This document shows, one piece after another, positions 8,456-45,427 of a DNA stretch of 64,000 nucleotides. Where the stretch lies: NCBI RefSeq assembly GCF_001677475.2, contig NZ_CP015229.1; one strand, written 5' to 3'. Under the pieces are notes generated by a model. It did not search any database. It had not been told where the DNA came from and saw only the letters and a list, made by a program, of their open reading frames with translations. This DNA is from Escherichia coli (GTDB lineage: Bacteria > Pseudomonadota > Gammaproteobacteria > Enterobacterales > Enterobacteriaceae). Within the stretch, counting starts at the first letter, position 1; each line of letters begins with the position of its first letter. The translations under genes and the position numbers were made by a program.

Positions 8456-11359
<2,904 letters not shown>

Positions 11360-11456
11360 CAACGCCGAAGATGTTTTGGCGGATAGAGAGAAGATTTTCA
11401 GCCTGATACAGATTAAATCGACAGGTCAGAACATGACGTGTTGATAAAACAGAATT

Positions 11457-11576
11457 TGCCTGGCGGCCGTAGCGCGGTGGTCCCACCTGACCCCATGCCG
11501 AACTCAGAAGTGAAACGCCGTAGCGCCGATGGTAGTGTGGGGTCTCCCCATGCGAGAGTAGGGAACTGCCAGGCAT
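11457..11576 (+). rRNA. rrfH: 5S ribosomal RNA
   Basis: tgcctggcggccgtagcgcggtggtcccacctgacc...gggaactgccaggcat; 120 nt. Confidence 0.98.
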
Positions 11577-11628
11577 CAAATTAAGCAGTAAGCCGGTCAT
11601 AAAACCGGTGGTTGTAAAAGAATTCGGT

Positions 11629-11705
11629 GGAGCGGTAGTTCAGTCGGTTAGAATACCTGCCTGTCACGCAGGGGGTCGCGGGTTCGAGTCCCGTCCGTTC
11701 CGCCA
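11629..11705 (+). tRNA. aspU: tRNA-Asp (GTC), distal gene of rrnH
   Basis: ggagcggtagttcagtcggttagaatacctgcctgtcacgcagggggtcgcgggttcgagtcccgtccgttccgcca; identical to the aspV copy at 19852..19928. Confidence 0.97.
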
Positions 11706-11715
11706 CTTATTAAGA

Positions 11716-11745
11716 AGCCTCGAGTTAACGCTCGAGGTTTTTTTT
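11716..11745 (+). terminator. Rho-independent terminator of rrnH
   Basis: Stem cctcgag/ctcgagg with loop ttaacg followed by T8. Confidence 0.8.
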
Positions 11746-11867
11746 CGTCTGGATATCTATTATTGCCAGAATCGCAAAAATCCTCTGCGTTTTACGCTCT
11801 TTTTCCGCAACAGTCTGAAGCCCATAATCACCTCAGTTAACGAAAATAGCATTAAAAGAGGCATATT

Positions 11868-12671
11868 ATGGCTATCCCTGCATTTGGTTTAGGTACTTTC
11901 CGTCTGAAAGACGACGTTGTTATTTCATCTGTGAAAACGGCGCTTGAACTTGGTTATCGCGCAATTGATACCGCACAAATCTATGATAACGAAGCCGCAG
12001 TAGGTCAGGCGATTGCAGAAAGTGGCGTGCCACGTCATGAACTCTACATCACCACTAAAATCTGGATTGAAAATCTCAGCAAAGACAAATTGATCCCGAG
12101 TCTGAAAGAGAGCCTGCAAAAATTGCGTACCGATTATGTTGATCTGACGCTAATCCACTGGCCGTCACCAAACGATGAAGTCTCTGTTGAAGAGTTTATG
12201 CAGGCGCTGCTGGAAGCCAAAAAACAAGGGCTGACGCGTGAGATCGGTATTTCCAACTTCACGATCCCATTGATGGAAAAGGCGATTGCTGCTGTTGGCG
12301 CTGAAAACATCGCTACTAACCAGATTGAACTCTCTCCTTATCTGCAAAACCGTAAAGTGGTCGCCTGGGCTAAACAGCACGGCATCCATATTACTTCCTA
12401 TATGACGCTGGCGTATGGTAAGGCCCTGAAAGATGAGGTTATTGCTCGTATCGCAGCTAAACACAATGCGACTCCGGCACAAGTGATTCTGGCGTGGGCT
12501 ATGGGGGAAGGTTACTCGGTAATTCCTTCTTCTACTAGACGTGAAAACCTGGAGAGTAATCTTAAGGCACAAAATTTACAGCTTGATGCCGAAGATAAAA
12601 AAGCGATCGCCGCACTGGATTGCAACGACCGCCTGGTTAGCCCGGAAGGTCTGGCTCCTGAATGGGATTAA
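11868..12671 (+). CDS. dkgB: 2,5-diketo-D-gluconate reductase B / aldo-keto reductase
   Basis: 267-aa AKR-family [42 protein letters not shown]...; RBS aaaagagg upstream. Confidence 0.9.
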
Positions 12672-19851: not shown

Positions 19852-19928
19852 GGAGCGGTAGTTCAGTCGGTTAGAATACCTGCCTGTCACGCAGGGGGTC
19901 GCGGGTTCGAGTCCCGTCCGTTCCGCCA
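19852..19928 (+). tRNA. aspV: tRNA-Asp (GTC); integration site of the downstream island
   Basis: 77-nt sequence identical to aspU; followed by a hairpin terminator. Confidence 0.97.
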
Positions 19929-22112: not shown

Positions 22113-23992
22113 ACGCTTCCCCGCTGTCCCGCCCTGGCAGGCCAGGTCATAATTTTGCCGCGCTGCATGCTGTGCAGCGTCATCTGCGAGAAGGTATTAA
22201 TGGAAACATGACGGGCGATATAGTGCTCCAACACCAGACCGAACAGATACGGACTGATACCGGAGAACCCCTCCTCATCCACGGTCAGTTCACAACTGAC
22301 GCCGCGCCCATAGACCAGCAGCCCGGAACCGGGCAGACGGCGGGTGACCGGGGTGGTGTTGCAGCCAATCAGGCTGCGCACCTGGCGCGACTGCGGACTG
22401 TCATGCGCCGGAATAAACAGGTTAAGCAGATCGCGCAGCGCCTGACCACCGGTACGGTGATCCAGATCGGCCAGCGGCAGATAGTTAAAGGATAACTGGC
22501 GGATCAACCGCCAGGCCATTTCACGTTCAGCCAGCGGAGGCTGCGGCGGACGCGGCGGACGGATAAGCCCCACGCCCGCCACCGGGATGGCCGCATCCAC
22601 GGTCAGATCGTCCCGTCCATTGCGGGCAATAAGACAGGGCAGATCGCGGTTGGTGACCATAGCCGTGATGGTGATATGGCGCAGATTTTCCGGGTATGGC
22701 GCTTCATACTGGTCAACCAGCGACAGGAACACTTCTGATCCTGTATAGGAGGTGCGGGTGCCATAGCGGCGGGCATTTTCCGACAACCGGCGCGGCTCCC
22801 GGCGCAGGGAAAAATAACGTCCGTGATTGCCTTCATCATTATTGCGGGTGTGGTAGAGCGGGCGAAAGGCCATCTTCCGTGTGGTGTCAGTTTCCAGCCC
22901 TTCCACTTCCTGGACCGAGAACACCTCATAATCCAGCGGATGGGTTCTGTCCACCACCAGATGCTGTTCCGTCGTGCTGTGCGTGACATCGATCCGGGCG
23001 GCGACTCGGGGAAACAGGTTGATAACCGGGGTACAGAACAGACTGAACTGTGCCGCGTTTGTCTGGTGGATCAGCCAGTCCGGCGGCAGGCGGTTCAGCA
23101 GGATAACAATCTCCGCCACTCCGCCTTCAATTTTCTGTAACCCGGCAGACAGGCCTGTCGGGGTGAAAAAAAAGAAGCGTTCCGGACAGGTAAAATATTC
23201 ATGTAGCAGGTTATGGCCGTGAAACACATTCCACGCCAGCGGCAACAGTCCCTGATCCGGATCCAGGCCTTCGTACATAACGGGCTGTTTCAGATTCACA
23301 TCCAGTGCGCCGTCAAAATGCCCCGGAATGCCAGCCAGGCTCGCGATGGCGCTGGTATGCAGTAGTTCGAACAGGTGTGAGGCCGTGCGCTCCTCGCCGC
23401 AGAGATAAAATGGTAGCTTGTTCAGCCCTGCAAGCTGACTGAACGTCAGTTCACCAAAGGTGCGCAGGGTAATACGCAGCGCACCAGCGACGTGAATGTT
23501 GGCTGGCAGGTAGCGGTGCAGGGCAGGCATATCCGGCGGCGCGGCGGTCAGGCGCACCTCTTCGATGGCAAGCGGCCACAGCGTCACATTCTGGCTGCTA
23601 CGAAACTGGCAGGCAGTACTTTCGCCTTCCGGAATGGCGGAAAAAAAGGCCGTGTTGCGCGGGACGGTGAATCCCTTCGCCAGATCGCCTTCTTCCGGAT
23701 CGGGATGAAGCTGCGCCACGCTCATTGAGGGCGTGGGTGTGACGTAATTGGGGCTGACCACTTCCAGCAGGCGCTGGGTGAAACGGGGGAATTCAGCGTC
23801 AATTTTTAGCTGCGTGCGGGCGGTCAGGAAGCTGAAGGCCTCGACCATTCGCTCCACATACGGATCGGCAATATCCGTTCCCTGCATACCCAGTCGGGCG
23901 GCGACTTTAGGATGACGGGCGGCAAATTCGGCTCCCGTTTCCCGCAGATAGCTCAGTTCGCGGTTGTAGTATTCCAGTAGCCGTGGATCCAT
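22109..23992 (-). CDS. tssF: Type VI secretion baseplate protein TssF
   Basis: 627-aa ORF; length and operon position. Confidence 0.85.
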   Translation of the reverse strand: MDPRLLEYYNRELSYLRETGAEFAARHPKVAARLGMQGTDIADPYVERMVEAFSFLTARTQLKIDAEFPRFTQRLLEVVSPNYVTPTPSMSVAQLHPDPEEGDLAKGFTVPRNTAFFSAIPEGESTACQFRSSQNVTLWPLAIEEVRLTAAPPDMPALHRYLPANIHVAGALRITLRTFGELTFSQLAGLNKLPFYLCGEERTASHLFELLHTSAIASLAGIPGHFDGALDVNLKQPVMYEGLDPDQGLLPLAWNVFHGHNLLHEYFTCPERFFFFTPTGLSAGLQKIEGGVAEIVILLNRLPPDWLIHQTNAAQFSLFCTPVINLFPRVAARIDVTHSTTEQHLVVDRTHPLDYEVFSVQEVEGLETDTTRKMAFRPLYHTRNNDEGNHGRYFSLRREPRRLSENARRYGTRTSYTGSEVFLSLVDQYEAPYPENLRHITITAMVTNRDLPCLIARNGRDDLTVDAAIPVAGVGLIRPPRPPQPPLAEREMAWRLIRQLSFNYLPLADLDHRTGGQALRDLLNLFIPAHDSPQSRQVRSLIGCNTTPVTRRLPGSGLLVYGRGVSCELTVDEEGFSGISPYLFGLVLEHYIARHVSINTFSQMTLHSMQRGKIMTWPARAGQRGSV

Positions 23993-34404: not shown

Positions 34405-35748
34405 ATGAGTTGGAATAACCGGGTGGTCTGGAGTGAAGGACAATTTTTGTTGCCACAGATGTTTCAGCAGCAGGAACGCTATCTGGAACATGTCATTCAT
34501 TATCGCAGTTTGCCTCTTTCACCTTTTTACTGGGGTTTCAATGAGTATGGTATTGGTAGTGAGGCGCTGAACATCGGAAAACTGGTACTTACGAAGGCTT
34601 CCGGGGTATTTGCTGACGGTACACCTTTTAATGCGCCGGGTCATACACCACTCCCGCCGCCGCTGACCATCCTTCCAGAACATCTTAACCAGTTGATTTA
34701 TCTGGCTGTGCCAATACGTACGCCGAACAGTGAAGAAACCAGTTTCGACAATAACCCTGAATCACTGGCACGTTTTTCGGTACATGAAAGTGAAATCCGT
34801 GATGCCAATTCGCTGGGGCGAGGCGCGCAACTGCTGCAACTTAGCCACCTGCGCTTGCGACTGTTACCGGAAAAGGCGGTGACAGACGCGTGGATCGGCC
34901 TGCCGCTGACGCGCATCACGGCGCTGCATCCCGATGGTCGGGTCGATATAGACAAAGAGTTGATCCCGCCAGTGGCGAACTACCAGGCCAGTACGCTGAT
35001 ATGTACCTGGCTGTCGTGGATTAACGATCTGATAAAAATGCGTGCAGATTCGCTGGCGGAACGATTGACGGGGAGCGACAAACACGGTCATGAAGCGGCG
35101 GAAGTGTCGGATTACCTGCTTCTGCAAGTTCTTAATCGTTTCGGCCCCTTATTGATCCATATGTCGAAAACGCCGCTATCGCCTGAAGTACTTTATCGTA
35201 ACCTCTGCGCACTGGCCGGAGAACTCTCTACCTACGTGCGTCCGCAAACACGTCGTCCGGAAGAATATAAAGAATATAAGCACCTGACGCCCTATGCCGG
35301 GCTGAAATCGGTGGTGGACGAGGTTCAGTATCTACTGAATGCTGTGCTAATACGTGGGGCGCAGCGAATCCCTCTGGAAGAGGGAACTTACGGTATTCTC
35401 AATGCGGTGGTTGAACCTACCGAACTGTCAGATTTCAGCTCGTTAGTATTGGCGGTGAAGGCACAGATGTCCGCCGACACCTTACTACAACATTTTTCGG
35501 CTCAGACCAAAATAGGGCCGTCAGAACGCCTGCCGGAACTGATTCGCTCGCACCTTCCTGGTCTTGTTCTACAGGTGCTGCCAGTGCCACCGCGTCAGAT
35601 CCCGTTCCAGTCCGGTTACATCTATTACGACATCCGCCGCGACGGCGTGTTGTGGGAACATATCGCCCGCTATGGTGGCATGGCAATGCATACCGCCGGA
35701 GAGTTTCCAGGGCTGGAGCTGGAGCTGTGGGGAGTTCGCGATAAATGA
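34405..35748 (+). CDS. tssK: T6SS baseplate protein TssK
   Basis: 447-aa ORF; position between tssJ and tssL. Confidence 0.88.
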   Translation: MSWNNRVVWSEGQFLLPQMFQQQERYLEHVIHYRSLPLSPFYWGFNEYGIGSEALNIGKLVLTKASGVFADGTPFNAPGHTPLPPPLTILPEHLNQLIYLAVPIRTPNSEETSFDNNPESLARFSVHESEIRDANSLGRGAQLLQLSHLRLRLLPEKAVTDAWIGLPLTRITALHPDGRVDIDKELIPPVANYQASTLICTWLSWINDLIKMRADSLAERLTGSDKHGHEAAEVSDYLLLQVLNRFGPLLIHMSKTPLSPEVLYRNLCALAGELSTYVRPQTRRPEEYKEYKHLTPYAGLKSVVDEVQYLLNAVLIRGAQRIPLEEGTYGILNAVVEPTELSDFSSLVLAVKAQMSADTLLQHFSAQTKIGPSERLPELIRSHLPGLVLQVLPVPPRQIPFQSGYIYYDIRRDGVLWEHIARYGGMAMHTAGEFPGLELELWGVRDK

Positions 35749-36464
35749 CCGACGATATTCTGACGCAACCTGCGGTGAATACCCTGCAATTACAGCCTTC
35801 AATGAGGGGAACAAGGTCGCCTGATAATGACGGTTACGATACGCTCGTCCAGGACAGCCTTCGCAGGGAAGATATAAAGGTGGTGGTTGAAGACGGGCCA
35901 GATTTGAAGCTCCGCTTGGCTGAGATCACTGCTGCTGTGAATCCTCTTCTGGCGGCGGCCAGCCCTCTGTTATGCGCGCTGGCGCAAATGCCCCGTGAAC
36001 TTTCCCCTGGTTTTGTCGAACATTATCGCGCCCTACTGGAGCGTGAAGTCCGCCGGTATCAGACGCTGTGCGACCAGGCAAACCTGCGCCGCGAACATGT
36101 GCTGGCGGTACGTTACTGCGTGTGCACGGCGCTGGATGAAGCTGCCAACAACACCGTCTGGGGGCGACGCGGTGTCTGGGCCGGGAAGAGCCTGCTGGTG
36201 ACTTTTCATGGCGAAAGTGAAGGCGGCATCAAGCTGTTTCAGATAATCGGGCGTCTGGCCGCCAGCTTCCAGGAGCACAGCGATGTACTGGAAATCATTT
36301 ACCACATTCTGGGACTGGGTTTTGAAGGCCGCTACAGTGTACGGCCTGACGGGCGTAAACAACTGGACGATATCCGCCAGCAACTGCTGACTCAACTGGT
36401 CCAGCGTCGCGATCCGATCACGCCGACGCTCTTGCCGGGTTTTGCCGGTGCCGTCAGTGGGTGA
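35745..36464 (+). CDS. tssL: TssL cytoplasmic DotU-like domain (239 aa), ends at in-frame TGA before its expected membrane anchor
   Basis: 4-nt overlap with tssK; no TM helix in this ORF; stop 36462..36464 immediately followed in-frame by ATG of the next ORF. Confidence 0.7.
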   Translation: MTDDILTQPAVNTLQLQPSMRGTRSPDNDGYDTLVQDSLRREDIKVVVEDGPDLKLRLAEITAAVNPLLAAASPLLCALAQMPRELSPGFVEHYRALLEREVRRYQTLCDQANLRREHVLAVRYCVCTALDEAANNTVWGRRGVWAGKSLLVTFHGESEGGIKLFQIIGRLAASFQEHSDVLEIIYHILGLGFEGRYSVRPDGRKQLDDIRQQLLTQLVQRRDPITPTLLPGFAGAVSG

Positions 36465-37061
36465 ATGCGGCGGATGCGCCGGGTGCCGGTCTGGCTGAGC
36501 GCCGGAATCGCCCTGCTGGTGATGCTGACGCTGTTTGGCCTTTACAGCCACCGGATGAACCTCGCCACCGAAACCGTACAACAGCGTATCGACGCCATTG
36601 GTAAAAATCTTCCGCCGCCACCCGTTCCGGTGCATAAACTGCGGTTGAAAATCCTGCTGGCGAACGAAATCGCCCGTGGCCTGCTGACGGTGGAGGAAGA
36701 TGACCATCACAGCCGTGTAATCTTTCGTGGCGATACGATGTTTATACCGGGGCAGAAAACCGTGAATGATGCGCTGCGCCCGGTGATTGACAAGGCCGCG
36801 CGTGAGATTGCGCGTGTGGGGGGCGCGGTGACGGTGACCGGCCACACGGACAGCCAGCCGATCCACTCCGCTGAATTCCCGTCCAACCAGGTATTGTCGG
36901 AAAAACGTGCGGCAGAAGTAGCTTCGCTGCTGACATCTGGTGGCGTTCCGGCTAGCCGAATTCGGGGTGTCGGTAAAGGGGATACTATGCCGGTGGCTGA
37001 TAATAGTACTAAAACTGGACGAGCGCAGAATCGCCGGGTGGAAATTCTGGTGGTGGAGTGA
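36465..37061 (+). CDS. TM helix plus OmpA/MotB-like peptidoglycan-binding domain (expected C-terminal part of a long-form TssL)
   Basis: 198-aa ORF; TM segment WLSAGIALLVMLTLFGLY then OmpA-like motifs (TGHTDSQP…NQVLSEKRA…NRRVEI). Confidence 0.7.
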   Translation: MRRMRRVPVWLSAGIALLVMLTLFGLYSHRMNLATETVQQRIDAIGKNLPPPPVPVHKLRLKILLANEIARGLLTVEEDDHHSRVIFRGDTMFIPGQKTVNDALRPVIDKAAREIARVGGAVTVTGHTDSQPIHSAEFPSNQVLSEKRAAEVASLLTSGGVPASRIRGVGKGDTMPVADNSTKTGRAQNRRVEILVVE

Positions 37062-37069
37062 ATTAATAA

Positions 37070-37755
37070 TGGAAAAGCTAGAGTGTAATGCGTCTAACCA
37101 TTCGCCAGTGTGGGGAGTAACAGAATTTATATTCTGGAAACTGGCGCCTAAAAAATGGGGGGGAGGCGTAGCATTTGGGCGTTATTTTAAAGATGGTTGG
37201 GTGAAGCATAACGGTCTTTTGATCAATGCAGCTGCAAATGCCTGGCATTTACCTGCCCCCTTACTTGCTGGAGTTTGTTGGATTGAAGTAGGGGGTGATC
37301 CTCAGATTATAGACACGCTGGCATTTGAATTTCGTGCTATGAGTTGGAGTGGGCCTGAATGGGTTGATGAACATATCACAATCGCTTCGAAACCAGAAAA
37401 AACTTCTTTTGGTGCGGTGAGTATGCAATTGCGAACTGCAGCCAGAACACTCGGGCTTGATGAGACTAAAATGGACAACTCTCAGTTGCGTGAGCTGGCA
37501 AATTGTCTCCAGCATGATGTGTTTAATATACAATTAGCTGCAAGACATCTTTATCAATTGGCTGAAAAAGATGGTTTTCAGGTATCCTTACCTCACCTGA
37601 CAAAAGAACAAATAAGAATTATTGGAGCTCGTTATAATCGAGGTGTTTCCCTTAGTCTGGAAAAAATAAAGGAAGATACCAGCTATGGCGATTTTATTAT
37701 AAATAACTGGTTACATTTCTCTAGTTTATTAATAACTACCTGGAAGTCTTCATGA
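37070..37755 (+). CDS. Lysozyme-like / lytic-transglycosylase-like protein without signal peptide; candidate Tge-type effector or T6SS-associated murein hydrolase
   Basis: AT-rich; start MEKLECN chosen after OmpA ORF stop (track 36940 start overlaps it); motifs CWIEVGG, FGAVSMQL, IGARYNRG resemble GH23 E…S / GLMQ / AYN-G. Confidence 0.4.
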
Positions 37756-38039
37756 GAAAAATAATTCAGATATCAGGGTGGTTATTATTTATTATGGGAT
37801 TGGTCACTATCATGCTTTTTTCCGGGAGTGAGTACCAGTGGATGCAGGATATGGACCCTTCAATAACAGCATTACCTCAGGGAAACGGAAATAGAGATGT
37901 AATCAGAAAATTAATTTATTCTATTTCAGTGGCTATTCAGATTGTTCTTTATTTTCTTTCAGTATCGCGTACAGGAAAGGGATTTTCAGCCCTGGGTATT
38001 TTGCTATTACTGATTACCGCATGGAGCTCTGAACAATAA
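37752..38039 (+). CDS. Small two-TM membrane protein; candidate immunity
   Basis: 95-aa ORF coupled (ATGA) to the upstream gene; hydrophobic segments WLLFIMGLVTIMLF and LGILLLLITAW. Confidence 0.4.
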   Translation: MRKIIQISGWLLFIMGLVTIMLFSGSEYQWMQDMDPSITALPQGNGNRDVIRKLIYSISVAIQIVLYFLSVSRTGKGFSALGILLLLITAWSSEQ

Positions 38040-41000
38040 TGCAAAAATTTCTCAGTCTGCTGTTTTCCCGCCGCACACTGGCCGTTGTCGGCGTGGTGGT
38101 GCTGGCGTTGCTGGTCTGGTTTATCGGGCCGCTGGTGGCGTTTGACACCTTGCATCCGCTTGCGTCCGTGGGTAGCCGGGTAGTCACTATCGTTCTGTTA
38201 CTGATGTTCCTTGCACTGTGGCTGGTTAACTGGTCGATGAGCATCATTGGCGTTACGGTTCTGTGCCTGGTTATCGGCTTTGTCTCACCGTTGCTGGCCT
38301 TCGGTGATGTTTATCCATTTGCGCCGCTGTGGCTGCGTCTGACGCTTATCGGCCTGATCCTTCTGTCTTATACGCTGTATGGCCTGTACCGATTGTGGCG
38401 GGCGCTGCGTCTGGATGAACAACTGCTGCGCCGTTTCCTGCATCCGCGCGGGGAAGATGTTCCGGTGGCAGGGGAAATTAAAGCCGACTTACGCACCGTC
38501 AGCCATATTGTCACTCGCGCTATTCGGCAACTGAAGCAACTGCGCGTAGACCTGCCGGGTTGGCGTAAGGTGCTGGAAGGAAAGCGTTTTCTGTACGAAC
38601 TGCCGTGGTTCATGGTTATCGGCAGCCCCGGTGATGGTAAAACTACCGCGCTGCTTAACACCGGGCTACAGTTTCCGCTGGCGGAGCAGATGGAGCAGAC
38701 CGCGCATATCCTTACCGTGCCGGGCGGCGGCACGCTGCACTGCGACTGGTGGTTCACCAACGAAGCGGTGCTCATTGACACTGCCGGGCGCTATGCCCGC
38801 CACGATGACGGCGGTGAAATCAGTGCGACCCAGCGCAACGCCGGGGAATGGCAGGGGTTTCTGGGACTGCTGCGTAAACACCGTCCCGGCGCACCGCTGA
38901 ACGGCGTTATCCTGACGCTAAACGTGGCGGATCTGACCGCGCAGTCCCCGGCGGAACGACTGGCTGCCTGTGCGGCTTTGCGTGCGCGGCTGGCTGAACT
39001 GCGTGAGACGCTGGGTATTCGTTTCCCGGTTTATCTGGTTGTCACTAAGATGGATCTGCTGCCGGGCTTTACGGAGTATTTCCGTGGGCTGACCAGTCAC
39101 CTGCGTGCCCAGGTCTGGGGCTTCACCCTGCCATACAGCCGCAGGCGTCACGCCAGCGATCCGCAGTCGTTGCATGCGCTCTGTGGCCAGGAACTGGCAA
39201 ATCTGACGCTGCGGCTGGATCAGGGGCTGGATACCCGGTTGCAGGAAGAGTACGACCTTAAAAGCCGTCAACGGCTCTACCGCTTTCCGCGCGAATTTGC
39301 CGCGCTGGGCGCGCCGCTGCTGGAAGCCATTGAACAGATTTTCCTCGATTCAAAATTTGACGCCACTCAGCTTAACAACACCCTACGCGGCGTATTTTTT
39401 ACCAGCGCCGCACAGGCGCAGGCAGACGCGGTGGCCGATCAGACGGGCATCTGGCAGCGCTTTGTCCGGGCGATCAAAGGGAAAGTGGAGTCACCTTCTC
39501 ATACCTTACCGGACGGCAACCGCAGCTATTTTCTTCATGACCTACTGACCCAGTTTATCTTCCGTGAAGCACACCTGGTGGAGCCGAATCTTCAATGGGC
39601 CTGGCGTTATCGCCTGCTGCGTACTGGCGGGCATCTGCTGGTACTAGCGTTGGCTTTCTGGTTGTGGCAGGGAATGCAGGGCAGCCAGCAGGGTAACAGC
39701 GGCTATCTGAATGAAATCGCCAGCCGGACGGTCCAACTGGATGGTGACGTCAAAGCCTATACCGGAAAACCTGCTATGCAGCCTGTCCCAGTCCTGTTGA
39801 ACCAGGCGCGGGCGCTCTCTGCCTGGCCGGGGCTGGACCCGGACTCACCGCCGCTGGCCTGGCGTTATGGTCTTTACAGCGTTCCGCCAGTAATGGAGAG
39901 CGTCGCATCCCTGTATGACCGTCTGCTGGACCAGCTCCTATTGCCGCCACTGGTGAAGCGCATGGAATATGTGCTTTCAGATGCCATTGCTCGTCAGGAC
40001 AGCAAAGCCGCGTATGACGCTCTGCATGTTTATCTGCTGCTGAATCTTGATAAAGACCACGAGGACAAATACAACGCAGCGGAGATCCACGCCTGGGTAC
40101 TGAACGATCTGGAAAACCGCGATAGCGTGGCGGAGTTCGGCGGCCGTGCAGCAGTGCTGGAACATATCGACGCCCTGTTTGACGGCAGCCGTGTGGTGCA
40201 TTCGCCTTATGACAAAGATGAGGGACTGATCCGCATGGCGCGGGCTTTCCTTGACGGTCATACCAGCACCGAGCGTATCTATACTCGAGCCCTGGCTTCC
40301 ATGGAGAGCGAAGCACCGCAGGAGTTTTCGCTGGTTCGCGCGGTGGGCGCGGATGCGGGGACGGTTTTTGTCCGCACGGATGGCGCGCCACTGGATAGGG
40401 GCGTGCCCGGCATCTTTACTCGCGAAGGCTACCGGGAACTGTTCGACAAACGGCTGTCGGAGTTTGTCGCCTCCGCATCAGCGGACGACGCCTGGGTAAT
40501 GGGCCGGGAAAACGCGCAAAAAAAAACGACTGATATTGTGATGAGCCAGTTGCCGGGGCAGGAACTCCCGGTTACCCGTGAGGTACGCCGCCTGTATCTG
40601 GCTGAATATGCCCGCCGCTGGCAGGATTTTCTGGCTAGTATTCACAGCATCAACAGTGCCGGGGAAGACGGTAGTCCCGGACTGGCGTATGACCTTCAGG
40701 TGCTTCGCACACTGGCCTCGCCTGACTCACCTCTGATGCGCCTGAGTAAAGCGGTGGTGGAGCAGACCACGCTGGTACCGCCGCTGGATGCGCAGGCCAG
40801 ACAAAAACAAATGGCCCAGCGCGCGCAGGACCGGCTCTCCGGTAATGCGGGTAAAGCAGTGCAGACGGCAAAGCTGTTGCAGGATATCCACCCGGAAGAG
40901 CGGCTGGAAAAATCGCTGGTGGATGACCGTTTCGCCGCTCTGCGGGAAGTGGTTTCCGGGCGGACGGACAGTGGACAGGGGGGCGGGGCGCCGCAGTTAA

Positions 41001-41905
41001 ATTCGCTGCTGACAATGCTCAATGAGTATTACACCCAGCTCACCATCGCCGACAGTGCATTGGCAGCGAGCACATTACCGGGCCGCATTTCGGCGGCGGA
41101 TAAACTACAACTGGAAGCGGCAAAACTGCCCGCACCGCTGAAAAATATTCTGCTGGATCTCACGCAGCAGGGAACGCGAAAGATCAACGCCGGCACCGGT
41201 GAAGTGCTGAACGCGCAGATGGAGGCGGTGATCGGTGATGAGTGCCGTGACGCCATTGACGGGCGCTATCCCTTCACCGACAGCCCGCAGGAAGTCAGCG
41301 CGGACGATTTTAACCGTATCTTTGCTAGCGGCGGTGTGCTGGATGCCTTCTGGACGAAGCAACTGGCCCCGCTGGCGGATACCGCCAGCAACCCGTGGCG
41401 ATACAAACCGACCGAAGGCAACATGACTTTACAGGGGCCGGACCTGACGCCGTTTCAGGAGGCGAAACAGATCCGCAGCGTGTTTTTTAACGGCGACGGC
41501 GGGAAAAAGTTCTCCTGGGCGATGCAGGTCCGCGTCGTGGATATGGACCCGGCCATCACCGAACTGGTGATTGACATTGACGGCCAGGTACTGCGTTACG
41601 CTCACGGCCCGGTCAGGCCGCTGAAAGTGAACTGGCCGGGTCCGCGCAACGGCTCAATGGCGGAAATAACCGCCAGCCCGCGCATCCGCCAGGACACCTC
41701 GACGCTGCTGACTAATGGACCGTGGGCGCTGTTTCACCTGCTGGATGCGGGAAAAGCGCAAGAAACGGCGGTACGGGGAATACAGCAGGTGGAGTACAGC
41801 TTTGACGGGCGGCGGGTGATACTGGAAATCACCGCCGGACGGGATTTTGACCCAGTGGATCGCGGACTATTGCAACTCTTCGCCTGCCCGGAGCGAGCGC
41901 TGTGA
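38039..41905 (+). CDS. tssM: T6SS membrane complex protein TssM (IcmF)
   Basis: 1288-aa ORF; N-terminal TM helices; Walker A GSPGDGKTT. Confidence 0.92.
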   Translation: MQKFLSLLFSRRTLAVVGVVVLALLVWFIGPLVAFDTLHPLASVGSRVVTIVLLLMFLALWLVNWSMSIIGVTVLCLVIGFVSPLLAFGDVYPFAPLWLRLTLIGLILLSYTLYGLYRLWRALRLDEQLLRRFLHPRGEDVPVAGEIKADLRTVSHIVTRAIRQLKQLRVDLPGWRKVLEGKRFLYELPWFMVIGSPGDGKTTALLNTGLQFPLAEQMEQTAHILTVPGGGTLHCDWWFTNEAVLIDTAGRYARHDDGGEISATQRNAGEWQGFLGLLRKHRPGAPLNGVILTLNVADLTAQSPAERLAACAALRARLAELRETLGIRFPVYLVVTKMDLLPGFTEYFRGLTSHLRAQVWGFTLPYSRRRHASDPQSLHALCGQELANLTLRLDQGLDTRLQEEYDLKSRQRLYRFPREFAALGAPLLEAIEQIFLDSKFDATQLNNTLRGVFFTSAAQAQADAVADQTGIWQRFVRAIKGKVESPSHTLPDGNRSYFLHDLLTQFIFREAHLVEPNLQWAWRYRLLRTGGHLLVLALAFWLWQGMQGSQQGNSGYLNEIASRTVQLDGDVKAYTGKPAMQPVPVLLNQARALSAWPGLDPDSPPLAWRYGLYSVPPVMESVASLYDRLLDQLLLPPLVKRMEYVLSDAIARQDSKAAYDALHVYLLLNLDKDHEDKYNAAEIHAWVLNDLENRDSVAEFGGRAAVLEHIDALFDGSRVVHSPYDKDEGLIRMARAFLDGHTSTERIYTRALASMESEAPQEFSLVRAVGADAGTVFVRTDGAPLDRGVPGIFTREGYRELFDKRLSEFVASASADDAWVMGRENAQKKTTDIVMSQLPGQELPVTREVRRLYLAEYARRWQDFLASIHSINSAGEDGSPGLAYDLQVLRTLASPDSPLMRLSKAVVEQTTLVPPLDAQARQKQMAQRAQDRLSGNAGKAVQTAKLLQDIHPEERLEKSLVDDRFAALREVVSGRTDSGQGGGAPQLNSLLTMLNEYYTQLTIADSALAASTLPGRISAADKLQLEAAKLPAPLKNILLDLTQQGTRKINAGTGEVLNAQMEAVIGDECRDAIDGRYPFTDSPQEVSADDFNRIFASGGVLDAFWTKQLAPLADTASNPWRYKPTEGNMTLQGPDLTPFQEAKQIRSVFFNGDGGKKFSWAMQVRVVDMDPAITELVIDIDGQVLRYAHGPVRPLKVNWPGPRNGSMAEITASPRIRQDTSTLLTNGPWALFHLLDAGKAQETAVRGIQQVEYSFDGRRVILEITAGRDFDPVDRGLLQLFACPERAL

Positions 41906-42093
41906 TACGCCGGGCGGCGGCAGTATCGTTGGCAGACTACCGGACCCATGTGACTATGCTAAAGGCTGCATTCACGGATGTCTTGACGTGGAGTTGTATG
42001 CTAAAACAGGCCGTTGCACCAGGTGAGCAAAAAGTCACCATTAATGTCACTTATATACTGAGATGGCAGGGCAACGACGCAACAAAACTATAA
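41902..42093 (+). other. Short ORF whose 5' end is a degenerate duplicate of the tagF start (probable insertion scar)
   Basis: tgtgatacgccgggc…ggcagactaccggacc at 41901..41946 parallels ttgtgatgcgccgggc…ggcagactgccggacc at 43504..43560; peptide MIRRAAAVS vs TagF MMRRAEIS. Confidence 0.45.
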
Positions 42094-42151
42094 ACTTTCT
42101 TAAACCGACGTTATAGCGACCATCCTACTACCGTGATTCAGGAAGCATGAT

Positions 42152-42847
42152 ATGCAACAATATACGCGTTTTTTTATTATTTTTTTGTTATATGCCATGT
42201 CAGGAAATGTTTTTGCTGATATCAGAAAAAACACAGGAACTATTGACCCCGATTATATTAATCTCAGTGCGCAGGAATTTTTGTCATTTTATGCTCGTGG
42301 AACGTCACAGGAAAAAGAAAATGTTCTGATGTATGTCCTTGGTGTGAGTGATGCGACAGAAAGTAAAACCTGGTGTGGATATAATAAGATTAATGAAATA
42401 GAACTTTATTCATCGGTACTGACATATCTTAATCAGCAGTCGGTTAACGATATGAATATGCGAGCTTCAACTCTGATTGAACAAGCGATGGTCAGGCTGT
42501 TTCCCTGCCCGGATATGGCATCACCGGAAAAAAAATCTCCCCGGCAGTCATCTGTTTCACACCTGACCTCTGGCGCGTTCGATCTGAACGGAGATGATTT
42601 TTTCCGCTTCTGGCAGTCAGATAACAGGCAGGATAGGCTTAATGCGAAAATCTATCTTTTGGGTATAGAAGATGCCACGGAAAGAAAAACATGGTGCGAT
42701 TATAAAACGATTAAAACAGTTACACTGGATGAGATTATTTACTGGTATTTCAGAAAAAAAACGTCAGATAAACTGAATGAACGGGCTGCAAATATTATTA
42801 TTGAGGCACTAAGTAAACACTCCTGTGATAAAGGAAATAATAAATGA
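42152..42847 (+). CDS. Secreted protein with two tandem homologous domains; candidate immunity for Tae4
   Basis: 231-aa AT-rich ORF; signal peptide (FFIIFLLYAMSGNVFA); internal repeat (…VLMYVLGVSDATESKTWCGYNKI… vs …IYLLGIEDATERKTWCDYKTI…). Confidence 0.4.
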   Translation: MQQYTRFFIIFLLYAMSGNVFADIRKNTGTIDPDYINLSAQEFLSFYARGTSQEKENVLMYVLGVSDATESKTWCGYNKINEIELYSSVLTYLNQQSVNDMNMRASTLIEQAMVRLFPCPDMASPEKKSPRQSSVSHLTSGAFDLNGDDFFRFWQSDNRQDRLNAKIYLLGIEDATERKTWCDYKTIKTVTLDEIIYWYFRKKTSDKLNERAANIIIEALSKHSCDKGNNK

Positions 42848-43320
42848 AACCTTCATTTTTCACACTTAAAAAAAAACATTACTCATCAGTTCAGATTGAT
42901 GGTGATGTTTTGTACAGTGAAGTGGGTTATAACTATGAAGCACTGCAACAGCAAAATGCTGGTTATGTAAATACCTGTGCCACACGTATGAGTCTGGCGC
43001 TGATTAAATCAGGCGTCAGCTTTAACGGGCGACTGACGATCAAAAGTGGTGACTGGAAAGGGAAGAAAATAGAAACCGGTGCGAAATTACTGGCAGATCA
43101 GCTTTCCCGAGCTGATGTTTTTGGAAGACCAGTTATCTGGTGTGACTCAGAAAAATTTAAAACAGACACCAGTAATAAAAGAGGAGTGGTCTTTTTCTGG
43201 AAGATTACGGGTTACGGTGGCGGTCATATTGATCTTATTGAGCCTTCTACCACAGGTGCTATATGTCATTCACATTGCTATTTTAGCTGCAAGGAAATCT
43301 GGTTCTGGGAACTGAATTAA
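42844..43320 (+). CDS. tae4: Tae4-family T6SS amidase effector (peptidoglycan D-Glu-mDAP amidase family)
   Basis: 158-aa ORF, ATGA-coupled; Cys45 in NTCATRMSLAL and His128 in GGGHIDLIE, then CHSHCYF, as recalled for Tae4; no signal peptide. Confidence 0.6.
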   Translation: MKPSFFTLKKKHYSSVQIDGDVLYSEVGYNYEALQQQNAGYVNTCATRMSLALIKSGVSFNGRLTIKSGDWKGKKIETGAKLLADQLSRADVFGRPVIWCDSEKFKTDTSNKRGVVFFWKITGYGGGHIDLIEPSTTGAICHSHCYFSCKEIWFWELN

Positions 43321-43505
43321 CAATTTTATTGGAAGCTGATTCCTGTTCTCTTTGTTGGGGGGATGCCCGAGCGATTTTATTATAAATGCTCTGATTCCTG
43401 TGGAAGAAAATTAATCCTGATATCTGACTTTATTATTGAAATGAAGAATTATGTTATGTATTACCGGGAATTGCTGAAAAACTTCACCTGTCCGGTAAGG
43501 ACGTT

Positions 43506-44276
43506 GTGATGCGCCGGGCAGAGATATCGGCCCCGGCGATGTTCGGCAGACTGCCGGACCAGCGGGACTATGTGCGCTGGCGGGTGAGCGCGAACGAAGG
43601 GCAGGTGTGGCAGGCGTGGCTGAACCAGCAAACGTGGCTGGGACAGGGGCGGCATATTGTTCTGCCGGAAGGAACGGATGCTGCGAAGACCGGAGTAAAT
43701 GACGGTTGGATGCACCTGTCACCGAGCGAGAAAACGGCGGTGCCGGAACACCATCCGCTACCGTGGAGCTTTGTATTATCGCCGGGATTTTTATCCATTG
43801 GTGGGCGCGATGAGTGGCTGACCGGGGTACTGACCGCCTCGCGTGACAGCACGGGCAGGCCGTGGCCGCTGGTGATTTACCAGCGTGCCGGACGGGAATG
43901 GCTGGAAGAGAGTCTGGATGAAACGCAAGGCTGGCTGTACTGGCTGGCAAGACTGGCGGCAGTACATGTCTCACCACAGACAGAACGCTGCGGGCGGCTG
44001 GCGGAGCAGGCAGACCAGCTGTGGGCGATGTGGCGACCGGGGCCGCGCTGGGCGCAGTGGTTGCGTGGTTTGCGGCGTGTACCGCAGCGCAGCCGGGAAC
44101 TCACCGGCCTGCCGGACGCACCGGTAGTGGAACTGCCCGGCGTGCGGCACCTGCCGTGGCCGGGCTGGCCGGACAAAATGCTGACGCAGGCACAACAAGG
44201 GCAGGGCTGGTTCTGGCAGCAGAACAGCGAGGGGCGGTATGTGGATGCGCTGCGGCTGACGGGGCAATCCTCATAA
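43506..44276 (+). CDS. tagF: T6SS-associated protein TagF (ImpM/DUF2094)
   Basis: 256-aa GC-rich ORF; N-terminal FGRLPDQRDYV resembles TagF F(Y)GKLPxxGDF motif. Confidence 0.55.
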   Translation: MMRRAEISAPAMFGRLPDQRDYVRWRVSANEGQVWQAWLNQQTWLGQGRHIVLPEGTDAAKTGVNDGWMHLSPSEKTAVPEHHPLPWSFVLSPGFLSIGGRDEWLTGVLTASRDSTGRPWPLVIYQRAGREWLEESLDETQGWLYWLARLAAVHVSPQTERCGRLAEQADQLWAMWRPGPRWAQWLRGLRRVPQRSRELTGLPDAPVVELPGVRHLPWPGWPDKMLTQAQQGQGWFWQQNSEGRYVDALRLTGQSS

Positions 44277-44342: not shown

Positions 44343-45044
44343 ATGACCAAGCTTAAATATGATGAAAACGGCCTGCTAGCAGAATACTATGCAAAAACAG
44401 ATATTGACGGTGATGTCATCACTCACAAAGATGACAGAATGACGTATTTATTAAATAAAAATACTGGCTCTATTTCTGTAGTGATAAAGTGGAAGTATGA
44501 GTGGTATAAGGATAATACCGTTACAGATGACTGGACTGTATTGGAAAAAGCTATTTTCATGAGATCAGTATATTTATCTGTTCAACAGGCATGGAATGGG
44601 AAAATAACTTATTCTGTTTCCGGTGAATCTGAGTTCGCTAAAAAATTTCAGGGGAAAGCTTTGCCTTTTGATGTGAGGATAATCCCTGTATCTCAGAATG
44701 AAGACTGGTTGGTAATTGCAACTAAAGTTTTGCCTGGTGCTGATTTAAGAACGTATGTTGATTTTAAGAACAGCACGGTTCATGTTGACTCAGCAGACCT
44801 GGAAAAAGTAGCAAAATGTTTTAATTGTAACAATACAGTGCAAATAAATATACCACATGAAGCCGGACATGTACTTGGTTACTTAGATGATGATTATGAT
44901 TCTTCGTCTCCGTATGTTGGAGATGTTAGTGGGCTGATGAATATGGGAATGGAACTCCGGGAAAGATATCTTAAAAACTCAACTATAACGTTGAATGTAA
45001 TAATGCCTGATACTAACTTCACTCTATTGAATGTAACCAAATGA
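44343..45044 (+). CDS. Putative zinc metallopeptidase toxin (HExxHxxGxxD motif), no signal peptide; candidate T6SS effector
   Basis: 233-aa AT-rich ORF; HEAGHVLGYLDD; immediately upstream of vgrG. Confidence 0.5.
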   Translation: MTKLKYDENGLLAEYYAKTDIDGDVITHKDDRMTYLLNKNTGSISVVIKWKYEWYKDNTVTDDWTVLEKAIFMRSVYLSVQQAWNGKITYSVSGESEFAKKFQGKALPFDVRIIPVSQNEDWLVIATKVLPGADLRTYVDFKNSTVHVDSADLEKVAKCFNCNNTVQINIPHEAGHVLGYLDDDYDSSSPYVGDVSGLMNMGMELRERYLKNSTITLNVIMPDTNFTLLNVTK

Positions 45045-45427
45045 AATTAATCTGTATTATAGTGTTCTTTCTTTCAATAAATTACGTAATCACAGCAAAT
45101 GTTTTCGAGCCTTCTGTAGTTTTTCAATCTCCCAGGTATTATGAGGAAAATGATATACAGAATGGAAATAACGATGCTTTTTTTGTGAAAAAATACGGCC
45201 CGCCTGTTCATGAGTTCATGAAGCCACGATATAAGTTTGCCGGTGAATATTATATCGGCTTGAATCAGACTTATCGCATCACAAACCCTGAATTTAAAGA
45301 TGTGCCTATTAAAGAAATGTTCTGGAATCTGCAAGAGGATTTAAATCTTACATGCTGGTTCCATTATAAAGACGGGCAGTGGCGGGTTATTTCTTATATT
45401 TTTTGGCCACCAGGGGCTAAATTTTAA
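45041..45427 (+). CDS. Secreted small protein, candidate immunity for the metallopeptidase
   Basis: 128-aa ORF, ATGA-coupled; N-terminal signal peptide (MKLICIIVFFLSINYVITANVF). Confidence 0.45.
   Translation: MKLICIIVFFLSINYVITANVFEPSVVFQSPRYYEENDIQNGNNDAFFVKKYGPPVHEFMKPRYKFAGEYYIGLNQTYRITNPEFKDVPIKEMFWNLQEDLNLTCWFHYKDGQWRVISYIFWPPGAKF

Follow-up and report, generated by a model that had tools for sequence, protein, structure and literature searches.

A Tae4 effector cassette with a tandem Rap1a immunity gene at the duplicated tssM-tagF junction of an Escherichia coli type VI secretion cluster

The chromosomal type VI secretion system (T6SS) cluster of Escherichia coli assembly GCF_001677475.2 (contig NZ_CP015229.1) was analyzed within a stretch of 64,000 nucleotides (nt), referred to here as the window. 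An AT-rich island separates the core genes tssM and tagF of this cluster; it encodes a 231-amino-acid (aa) protein with two Rap1a domains and a 158-aa Tae4 amidase, and parts of the tssM-tagF junction are present on both sides of it. We consider it quite likely that the island is an antibacterial effector-immunity cassette that was inserted by duplication of the junction, and that its 231-aa protein is a single-chain Rap1a pseudo-dimer that neutralizes Tae4. An earlier sequence-only reading of the same DNA had proposed a Tae4 cassette at this position, and all of the elements that it listed were found at or near where it had placed them. The gain of a toxin-immunity pair without breakage of packed, overlapping machinery genes is poorly documented. 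This locus supplies a before-and-after pair, with about 100 empty alleles, 10 occupied alleles, and a clear molecular scar.

The Tae4 effector and the tandem Rap1a protein

The island spans positions 41906 to 43505 (1600 nt) and has a GC content of 0.34 to 0.43, compared with 0.59 to 0.62 in its flanks, in agreement with the AT-rich segment described from the sequence alone. It holds two plus-strand open reading frames (ORFs), the 231-aa ORF followed by the 158-aa ORF, which overlap by 4 nt (ATGA). The RefSeq orthologues of the two products are named "Rap1a/Tai family immunity protein" and "T6SS effector amidase Tae4 family protein", respectively. Exact copies of the island proteins were confined to Escherichia records, and neither protein had a match in NCBIfam or PADLOC.

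The 158-aa protein matched the Pfam Tae4 family (PF14113) across model positions 1 to 125 of 125 (E 1e-15). In phmmer searches of PDB chains, it aligned with Serratia Ssp1 (4BI3) over its full length (E 2.4e-57) and with Agrobacterium Tae4 (E 5e-21). Cys45, within NTCATRMS, aligned with the alanine of the Ssp1 C50A mutant chain, and His128 lies in GGHIDLIEP, a motif identical to that of Ssp1, whose catalytic pair is Cys50 and His133. The spacing of cysteine and histidine thus fits the family, as the sequence-only reading had claimed. By homology, the 158-aa protein is an Ssp1-type Tae4 peptidoglycan endopeptidase, and it adds a rare cell-wall toxin of this type to the E. coli arsenal. The gene is under purifying selection, with a ratio of nonsynonymous to synonymous substitution rates (dN/dS) of 0.09 to 0.20. 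Its product begins with MKPSFFTLKKKHYSS, which lacks a hydrophobic core; that is, Tae4 has no signal peptide of its own. We infer that Tae4 is toxic and is delivered by the secretion system, probably into the periplasm of rival cells, where it would cut peptidoglycan.

Within the 231-aa protein, Pfam Rap1a matches were found at residues 49 to 119 (E 1e-10) and residues 154 to 223 (E 3e-9). Self-alignment of the protein showed that its halves are 32% identical over 77 residues, with a score of 142 versus 25.6 ± 4.6 for shuffled sequences (about 25 standard deviations). These results bear out the two tandem homologous domains that had been proposed, and the predicted signal peptide is likewise present as a hydrophobic N-terminus. 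Domain 2 (residues 131 to 228) matched Serratia Rap1a (3ZFI), the cognate immunity protein of Ssp1, with an E of 5e-26; the sole PDB match of domain 1 (residues 60 to 121) was the Agrobacterium "Tai4" (E 2e-7).

Membership of the canonical Tai4 group (the fold of Rap1b, Rap2a, Rap2b, EcTai4, and STTai4) was rejected, since neither sequence nor fold matched. The Tai4 family of Pfam gave no match to the 231-aa protein even at E <= 10, no Salmonella or Enterobacter Tai4 chain was among the PDB sequence matches at E <= 10, and the 50 listed Foldseek matches, out of 54 with E <= 10, included none. The 231-aa protein belongs to the Rap1a, or "Tai4a", family, the latter name having been given because the fold of Rap1a differs from that of the Tai4 proteins of Salmonella and Enterobacter (PMC3852654). 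The sequence-only reading had set an upstream, internally duplicated immunity gene against canonical tae4-tai4. Both features are real; the contrast is one of family, Rap1a rather than Tai4. In all Rap1a-Tae4 pairs examined, the immunity gene immediately precedes the Tae4 gene, and the tandem form is recurrent and conserved, not a local oddity.

In Serratia, two Rap1a subunits form a symmetric homodimer, and each side of it binds one Ssp1 (PMC3852654). Instead of the single-domain homodimer of that family, two non-identical domains were found in one chain, a variant architecture. An AlphaFold2 model of the 231-aa protein had a predicted local distance difference test (pLDDT) of 85 and a predicted template-modeling score (pTM) of 0.81; since this pTM was reached despite a disordered linker, it argues for a fixed arrangement of the two domains. 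Each domain superposed on Rap1a 3ZFI in Foldseek with a template-modeling (TM) score of 0.95 and a root mean square deviation of ~1 Å, as a five-helix fold. PMC3852654 lists 15 dimer-interface residues of Rap1a; domain 1 has the identical residue at 12 of these positions and domain 2 at 10. The cysteines of the Rap1a disulfide (Cys78-Cys122) are kept in both domains: among 18 aligned tandem relatives, C75, C182, and C225 never vary and C119 occurs in at least 90%, and tandem relatives down to 23% identity retain two cysteines per domain. Both domains are under purifying selection (dN/dS, 0.05 to 0.35), and the linker is the fastest-evolving part. On the basis of this model and these residues, the 231-aa protein is likely a single-chain pseudo-dimer, a version of the Rap1a homodimer, whose two domains would pack through the conserved helix-2 dimer surface.

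The two domains differ at the 12 positions that contact Ssp1. Domain 2 retains the T-V-T..E of the blocking helix together with conservative changes, and these are kept across the family; domain 1 is identical at only 2 of the 12 and varies widely between relatives. The best-conserved residues of domain 1 are those of the dimer interface, not those of the contact face. Judged from these partly conserved contact residues, domain 2, which alone keeps the Ssp1-blocking helix, is the likely inhibitor of the adjacent Tae4. Exported to the periplasm, the 231-aa protein would neutralize the toxin by placing the helix of domain 2 over the active site of Tae4, and domain 1 would be retained as a dimer partner with a hypervariable outer face.

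In an exhaustive search, approximately 12 of 144 family representatives had two-domain length; the remainder were single domains of 120 to 145 aa. A tandem-Rap1a gene followed by a Tae4 gene was found at four other genomic positions: in the TssL-TssM slot of some E. coli strains (L003), in the TagF-VgrG region of an Enterobacter-like cluster (L006), beside housekeeping genes (L008), and between hcp and tssE of a distant cluster (L010). In a rough neighbor-joining tree, the enterobacterial domain-1 and domain-2 sequences fell into separate clades. The tree suggests at least three independent origins of tandem proteins elsewhere, and it is only suggestive because it carries no support values. 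One relative, P0084, seems to have acquired its tandem Rap1a by a recent internal duplication.

A different division of labor between the domains is a real but lesser possibility, namely, dual specificity, in which domain 2 neutralizes the adjacent Tae4 and domain 1 is a fused immunity domain directed against another Tae4 variant, either that of competitors or that of a second cassette. In its favor, the single-domain proteins closest to domain 1 (P0105) are encoded immediately 5' of a Tae4 of their own, and domain 1 evolves under purifying selection. The surface of domain 1 that would bind an effector varies strongly among relatives, as an arms race would predict; some strains also carry two diverged tandem-Rap1a/Tae4 cassettes in one cluster (L003). 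However, the separate clades of the enterobacterial domains, the presence of one Tae4 only beside each tandem protein, and the conservation of domain 1 chiefly at its dimer interface argue against a second specificity, and the several apparent origins of tandem Rap1a, one of them recent, fit selection for a covalent dimer better. Since two diverged domains share one chain, the effector-binding faces are not equivalent. The double-domain protein is a natural experiment on an obligate-dimer inhibitor that could show whether linkage of the subunits frees one face for a new specificity.

The duplicated junction and the empty alleles

The sequence-only reading had recognized the first ~45 nt after the tssM stop as a degenerate copy of the tagF start. 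This stood: alignment of positions 41902 to 41958 with 43506 to 43572 gave 48 matches, 6 mismatches, and 16 gap columns (z = 9.5 against 2000 shuffles), and in multi-sequence alignments the remnant differs from tagF by a single 10-nt deletion. The duplication is larger than had been noted, since it includes the tssM tail as well. The ~45 to 60 nt that precede tagF (43460 to 43509) resemble the tssM 3' end (41846 to 41905) with z = 6.1; the corresponding repeat family, D2, pairs 41871 to 41915 with 43475 to 43519 at 73% identity. This second remnant retains an AAGGA ribosome-binding-like motif ahead of the tagF start. When the right junction was compared with the entire 64-kb window, its highest-scoring local match was the left junction (score, 37; next unrelated score, 22.5). 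The order is therefore tssM tail, tagF-head remnant, cassette, tssM-tail remnant, and tagF, with a junction of ~100 nt present twice. Since both the tagF head and the tssM tail are repeated, the whole tssM/tagF junction has been duplicated.

The repeat is clearer in the more diverged allele L003 (57 nt at 75% identity plus 30 nt at 87%). The tagF-head remnant has the 10-nt gap at the same alignment position in all four island alleles examined for it (the window, L002, L003, and L011). The island alleles examined include strain A20 and L003, and the L003 cassette is ~95% identical. The common remnant and its 10-nt deletion indicate one insertion event.

The tssM-tagF pair was present in 114 of 5426 complete E. 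coli genomes, and the cassette was present in 10 of those 114, or 0.2% of complete E. coli genomes; the other 104 were empty. In about 100 E. coli genomes, tssM and tagF are contiguous and overlap (GTGA). In the empty genomes sampled, the matched span was 1197 to 1200 nt, as expected for adjoining genes, and the RefSeq overlap in three empty alleles was 4 nt (L001, with a GTGA junction) or 1 nt (L012 and L013). The junction is contiguous also in the more distant clusters L006 and L010, which likewise have the GTGA overlap. Together with the common remnant, these alleles uphold the proposal that the cassette entered at a formerly contiguous junction. The position of the remnants leads to the same conclusion: the decayed gene halves lie on the "wrong" sides of the island, so the junction was contiguous first.

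The opposite direction of change, in which the island is ancestral and the contiguous alleles are secondary deletions, is very improbable. A deletion between the flanking repeats at their common GTGAT/CGCCGGGC core would indeed restore an intact junction, and the empty allele L001 is almost identical to the island alleles over the last 500 nt of tssM. Nevertheless, a decayed tagF head 3' of tssM and a decayed tssM tail 5' of tagF require an earlier contiguous junction; empty alleles predominate in E. coli, the more distant clusters are contiguous, and the GC content of the island is ~20 points below that of the cluster. The flanking similarity itself could be due to chance or to convergence on translation-initiation signals, given that the segments are short (~55 and ~50 nt) and GC-rich like the surrounding genes. 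The match runs well past any ribosome-binding site, however, and the comparisons with shuffled sequences and with the whole window, together with the longer repeat in L003, rule this origin out.

Later spread of the island between alleles was evident from comparison of the occupied genomes. In nine genomes, the cassette is 99.3 to 99.7% identical, and the flanking tssM and tagF alleles differ by 5 to 12%. The window shares with L002 (JNEC-KY177) a ~2.6-kb block (~41100 to 43738) of ~0.5% divergence, flanked by sequence that differs by 5 to 12%. The block ends abruptly inside both genes, ~800 nt into tssM and ~230 nt into tagF. Positions 40400 to 41100 of tssM are nearly identical to strain A20, which indicates that the window is a mosaic with a recombination breakpoint inside tssM. 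A near-identical cassette, divergent flanks, and breakpoints within tssM and tagF show that the island spread by ordinary homologous recombination in the flanking genes, not through the repeats. In a monophyly test, the flanking trees of the island alleles were incongruent. Because recombination causes this incongruence, the common 10-nt deletion is what remains to argue for a single origin.

No sign of a site-specific mobile cassette of the integron or transposon kind was found, and this candidate was rejected. The island has no flanking inverted repeats, and the flanks of homologous cassettes (the window, L003, L006, L008, and L010) have no motif in common. The duplication of ~100 nt is far longer than a transposase target duplication (2 to 15 nt). 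The RefSeq annotation of the orthologous stretches lists no recombinase gene, although the unmatched proteins of the two neighboring islands could have that function. The cassette may instead have entered by homology-facilitated illegitimate recombination, by Campbell-type crossover of a junction-bearing circle, or by template switching. Under the interpretation that we favor, a duplicative, non-site-specific insertion into the ancestral overlapping tssM/tagF junction would have copied ~100 nt to both sides. Both core genes and the AAGGA motif would have survived, the unused halves of the junction copies would have decayed afterward, and the island with its remnants would then have spread among diverged alleles of E. 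coli through ordinary homologous recombination within tssM and tagF. Selection would be a sufficient filter, because the overlap of tssM and tagF lets only junction-duplicating insertions keep both genes and the motif.

Among these routes, integration of a circular intermediate carrying a copy of the junction, by a single Campbell-type crossover, predicts exactly the observed order of tails, remnants, and cassette. It also accords with the recurrence of repeat-flanked cassettes at other junctions and with the very similar tssM backgrounds of empty and occupied alleles (98.7% identity in the 3' region between empty L001 [VCSW7] and occupied L002). The present repeats, however, are 73 to 87% identical with short exact runs and are too diverged for efficient RecA exchange, and the breakpoints of recent transfer lie away from them. 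The model, moreover, covers spread and not the formation of the first junction-bearing circle. We therefore regard this route as unlikely. Under this route, recombination between the repeats could also excise the cassette as a mobile circle and restore an empty junction; the tagF head of L001, however, differs from that of the island alleles, so L001 is not a simple excision product.

Remnants of core-gene ends also border other cassettes in related clusters. In L001 and in the Dutch isolate L012, direct repeats of 111 nt from the tagF 3' end, 82 to 86% identical, border a Tge2-like glucosaminidase cassette; in L001, where Tgi2PP accompanies Tge2, the second repeat copy is labeled a partial TagF pseudogene in RefSeq. 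The homologous Tae4 cassette of L006 is bounded by repeats of an immunity-gene tail plus the vgrG head, and a tagF 3' remnant precedes the next cassette; the effector of the first cassette there looks frameshifted. A repeat of at least 550 nt, again an immunity-gene tail plus the vgrG head, lies between two cassettes of L012 (within 9526 to 12174). Given this scar and its recurrence at other junctions, the insertion mechanism can be modeled and tested. We put forward, as a rather doubtful generalization, that the core-gene junctions of such clusters are reusable docking sites for recombinase-independent duplicative insertion and that tandem Rap1a is a repeatedly evolved single-chain heterodimer. 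If so, the decaying core-gene ends would be a datable footprint and a general route for growth of the effector arsenal, and tandem Rap1a would divide its roles between one conserved inhibitor face and one hypervariable face, possibly giving immunity to foreign Tae4 variants.

Several points weigh against the interpretation of a functional cassette inserted by junction duplication. No allele with a duplicated junction and without cargo was present among the 114 E. coli alleles. The remnants are ~22 to 30% diverged in ungapped register (73 to 82% identity), and the tssM-tail remnant matches the local alleles at 21 of 30 positions and the L006 alleles at 23 of 30, a segment too short to separate a local from a foreign source. 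With regard to the proteins, 5 residues of the Tyr17-bearing loop of Ssp1 are missing from the E. coli Tae4, so the Ssp1-type interface has changed; the Tae4-binding domain was assigned from Serratia contact residues; the domain packing comes from one AlphaFold2 model with an 18-sequence alignment; and single-domain relatives of domain 1 adjoin their own Tae4, so domain 1 is possibly a second inhibitor rather than a scaffold. Finally, tssL (35745 to 37061) has a TGA at 36462 to 36464 where two related E. coli alleles read CGA (Arg). Because of this nonsense codon, TssL is broken into a DotU portion and a transmembrane/OmpA portion, the latter restarting at the following ATG, and the secretion system of the source strain may therefore be inactive and no longer firing.

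Cluster setting and coordinates

The window contains the E. coli chromosomal T6SS cluster at tRNA-Asp, with the layout of Salmonella pathogenicity island 6 (SPI-6; subtype i3). Its gene order is ClpV, TssB/C, Hcp, TssJ, TssK, TssL, a small island, TssM, the studied island, TagF, a third small island, VgrG, a DcrB-like protein, and Rhs. This order and the location at tRNA-Asp match the SPI-6-type i3 cluster, which has been placed at tRNA-Asp with three variable regions that hold effector/immunity pairs (PMC12994826, PMC13224477). The GC content is ~0.59 to 0.62 in the core genes and 0.32 to 0.43 in the three islands. Coordinates are collected in Table 1.

Table 1. Features of the tssM-tagF island, its flanks, and core-gene remnants at related loci
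Feature	Sequence	Positions	Strand	Description
tRNA-Asp	Window	19852-19928		Insertion site of the cluster
tssM	Window	38039-41905	+	1288 aa; NCBIfam TIGR03348, 1051.8 bits; orthologues named tssM in RefSeq
tssM last ~60 nt	Window	41846-41905	+	Functional left copy of the duplicated junction
R'	Window	41902-41958	+	Degenerate copy of the tagF 5' end with a broken frame, starting at the tssM stop (GTGA); repeat family D6
Upstream spacer	Window	41959-42151	+	No detectable homologue; no similarity to flanks of homologous cassettes
Immunity gene	Window	42152-42847	+	231 aa; two Pfam PF18602 domains
Sec-type signal peptide	Window	42152-42220	+	Residues 1-23; hydrophobic N-terminus ending in VFA|D
Rap1a domain 1	Window	42239-42514	+	~Residues 30-121
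Fast-evolving linker	Window		+	Residues 122-142
Rap1a domain 2	Window	42578-42835	+	~Residues 143-228
tae4	Window	42844-43320	+	158 aa; Ssp1-like; Cys45 codon 42976-42978, His128 codon 43225-43227
Downstream AT-rich spacer	Window	43321-43459	+	No homologue, no convincing terminator
L'	Window	43460-43509	+	Degenerate copy of the tssM 3' end just upstream of tagF; repeat family D2
tagF	Window	43506-44276	+	256 aa from GTG; TIGR03373; right core gene, functional right copy of the junction
tagF 3' repeat	L001	7247-7357 and 8348-8458		
tagF 3' repeat	L012	7250-7360 and 8350-8460		
vgrG head and upstream region	L006	5416-5507, 7682-7773, and 9096-9187		Three copies between successive cassettes
tagF 3' remnant	L006	4269-4349 and 7809-7889		

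TagF matched TIGR03373 with an E of 4e-10 and 39.9 bits, against a curated cut-off of 41.2, and its RefSeq orthologues are named TagF domain-containing proteins. The orthologue in RefSeq begins at an ATG that corresponds to window position 43509, 3 nt into the GTG-initiated gene. Scans for promoters and terminators gave signals at or below shuffle expectation, and the cassette is probably transcribed by read-through from tssM. An Rfam search at E <= 1 gave a single chance-level match, to a human long noncoding RNA model (23 bits versus a gathering score of 55). A 63-aa ORF (41902 to 42093) begins at the remnant tagF GTG that overlaps the tssM stop and has its tail in the upstream spacer. Some gene callers annotate this ORF (as 62 aa in L004 and L005), which may be translated by coupling but seems to be a by-product of the duplication.

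The other two islands of the cluster were also surveyed. The AT-rich island between tssL and tssM (37072 to 38039) encodes a 227-aa protein and a 95-aa hydrophobic protein, neither of which matched Pfam, NCBIfam, or PADLOC; the two probably form a further effector/immunity pair. At this position, L001 and L002 carry a Tlde1 pair, and L003 carries a second and diverged tandem-Rap1a/Tae4 pair. The AT-rich island between tagF and vgrG (44343 to 45427) contains genes for two proteins, one of 233 aa with an HEAGH metalloprotease-like motif and one of 128 aa whose N-terminus resembles a signal peptide. They are a putative effector pair; neither had a family match, and the 90% cluster of this island has 373 members from E. 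coli and Shigella. ARAGORN reported a 94-nt tRNA-His at 22233 to 22326 on the minus strand, within a 627-aa ORF of the secretion cluster, which is probably a false positive. The region 5' of tssM in L012 (L012 1 to 2741) carries a class 1 integron (intI1, dfrA17) and IS1, with a small hypothetical ORF alone between them and tssM. Frameshifts were seen in tssM of L012 and L011 and in vgrG of L002, which indicates that the cluster is often decaying in E. coli.

Comparison with known systems

The general kind of pair found here, Ssp1-Rap1a, is already known, as are the RefSeq names of its members and the presence of cargo in the variable regions of i3 clusters. A literature search, which covered few subscription journals, returned no description of this E. 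coli cassette, of tandem Rap1a as a functional unit, of insertion at the tssM/tagF overlap, or of duplicated core-gene ends as a recurrent footprint.

The closest relative is the Ssp1-Rap1a pair of Serratia marcescens (4BI3, 3ZFI, and the complex 4BI8; PMC3852654, PMC3533786). The effectors are alike over their full length (E 2e-57) with Cys45 aligned, and domain 2 shares with Rap1a the disulfide cysteines, the dimer-interface residues, and the T-V-T..E blocking helix (E 5e-26). However, Serratia Rap1a is a single-domain homodimer flanked by two Ssp1 molecules (PMC3852654), whereas two 32%-identical domains are fused here. The E. coli effector also differs from Ssp1 in the shortened Tyr17 loop, and its cassette lies between tssM and tagF. 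The pair of Agrobacterium tumefaciens (6IJE, 6IJF; PMC6277958) is related as well, its "Tai4" matching domain 1 (E 2e-7) and its Tae4 matching the effector (E 5e-21). That "Tai4" is a single-domain protein and fits the model less well (TM score, 0.6 to 0.7).

The Tae4-Tai4 pairs of Salmonella Typhimurium and Enterobacter cloacae (PMC3695027) have an effector of the same Pfam Tae4 family and a periplasmic immunity protein encoded beside the effector in an SPI-6-type cluster, but the fold of that Tai4 differs from Rap1a (PMC3852654). No Salmonella or Enterobacter Tae4 or Tai4 was matched by phmmer among PDB chains at E <= 1 to 10. The positions differ too: the SPI-6 pair sits in variable region 1, downstream of tssC (PMC13224477), and the E. 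coli cassette sits between tssM and tagF. Variable regions 1 to 3 of Salmonella SPI-6 occupy the same tRNA-Asp site and hold periplasm-acting pairs (Tae4, Tlde1, and Tge2) between structural genes (PMC13224477, PMC12994826). The cassette fits cargo of this type in its location at tRNA-Asp, its drop in GC content, its presence polymorphism (10 of 114), and the alternative cargo in neighboring slots, where Tlde1 and Tge2/Tgi2PP occur in related E. coli alleles. These two studies, which describe the variable regions by gene content, mention no cassette that splits the tssM/tagF overlap and no duplicated core-gene ends.

With respect to mechanism, the effector-immunity modules of Vibrio cholerae (PMC5361080) and the displacement of rhs C termini (PMC2935791) are the nearest parallels. 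In both, new toxin modules appear beside conserved sequence and conserved remnants are left, and homology-facilitated illegitimate recombination followed by spread through homologous recombination has been proposed (PMC5361080, PMC2935791). In those systems, however, the incoming module displaces the old effector and orphans its immunity gene. The E. coli island displaces nothing; a gene-gene overlap has been duplicated on both sides of the cargo, and two machinery genes are intact.

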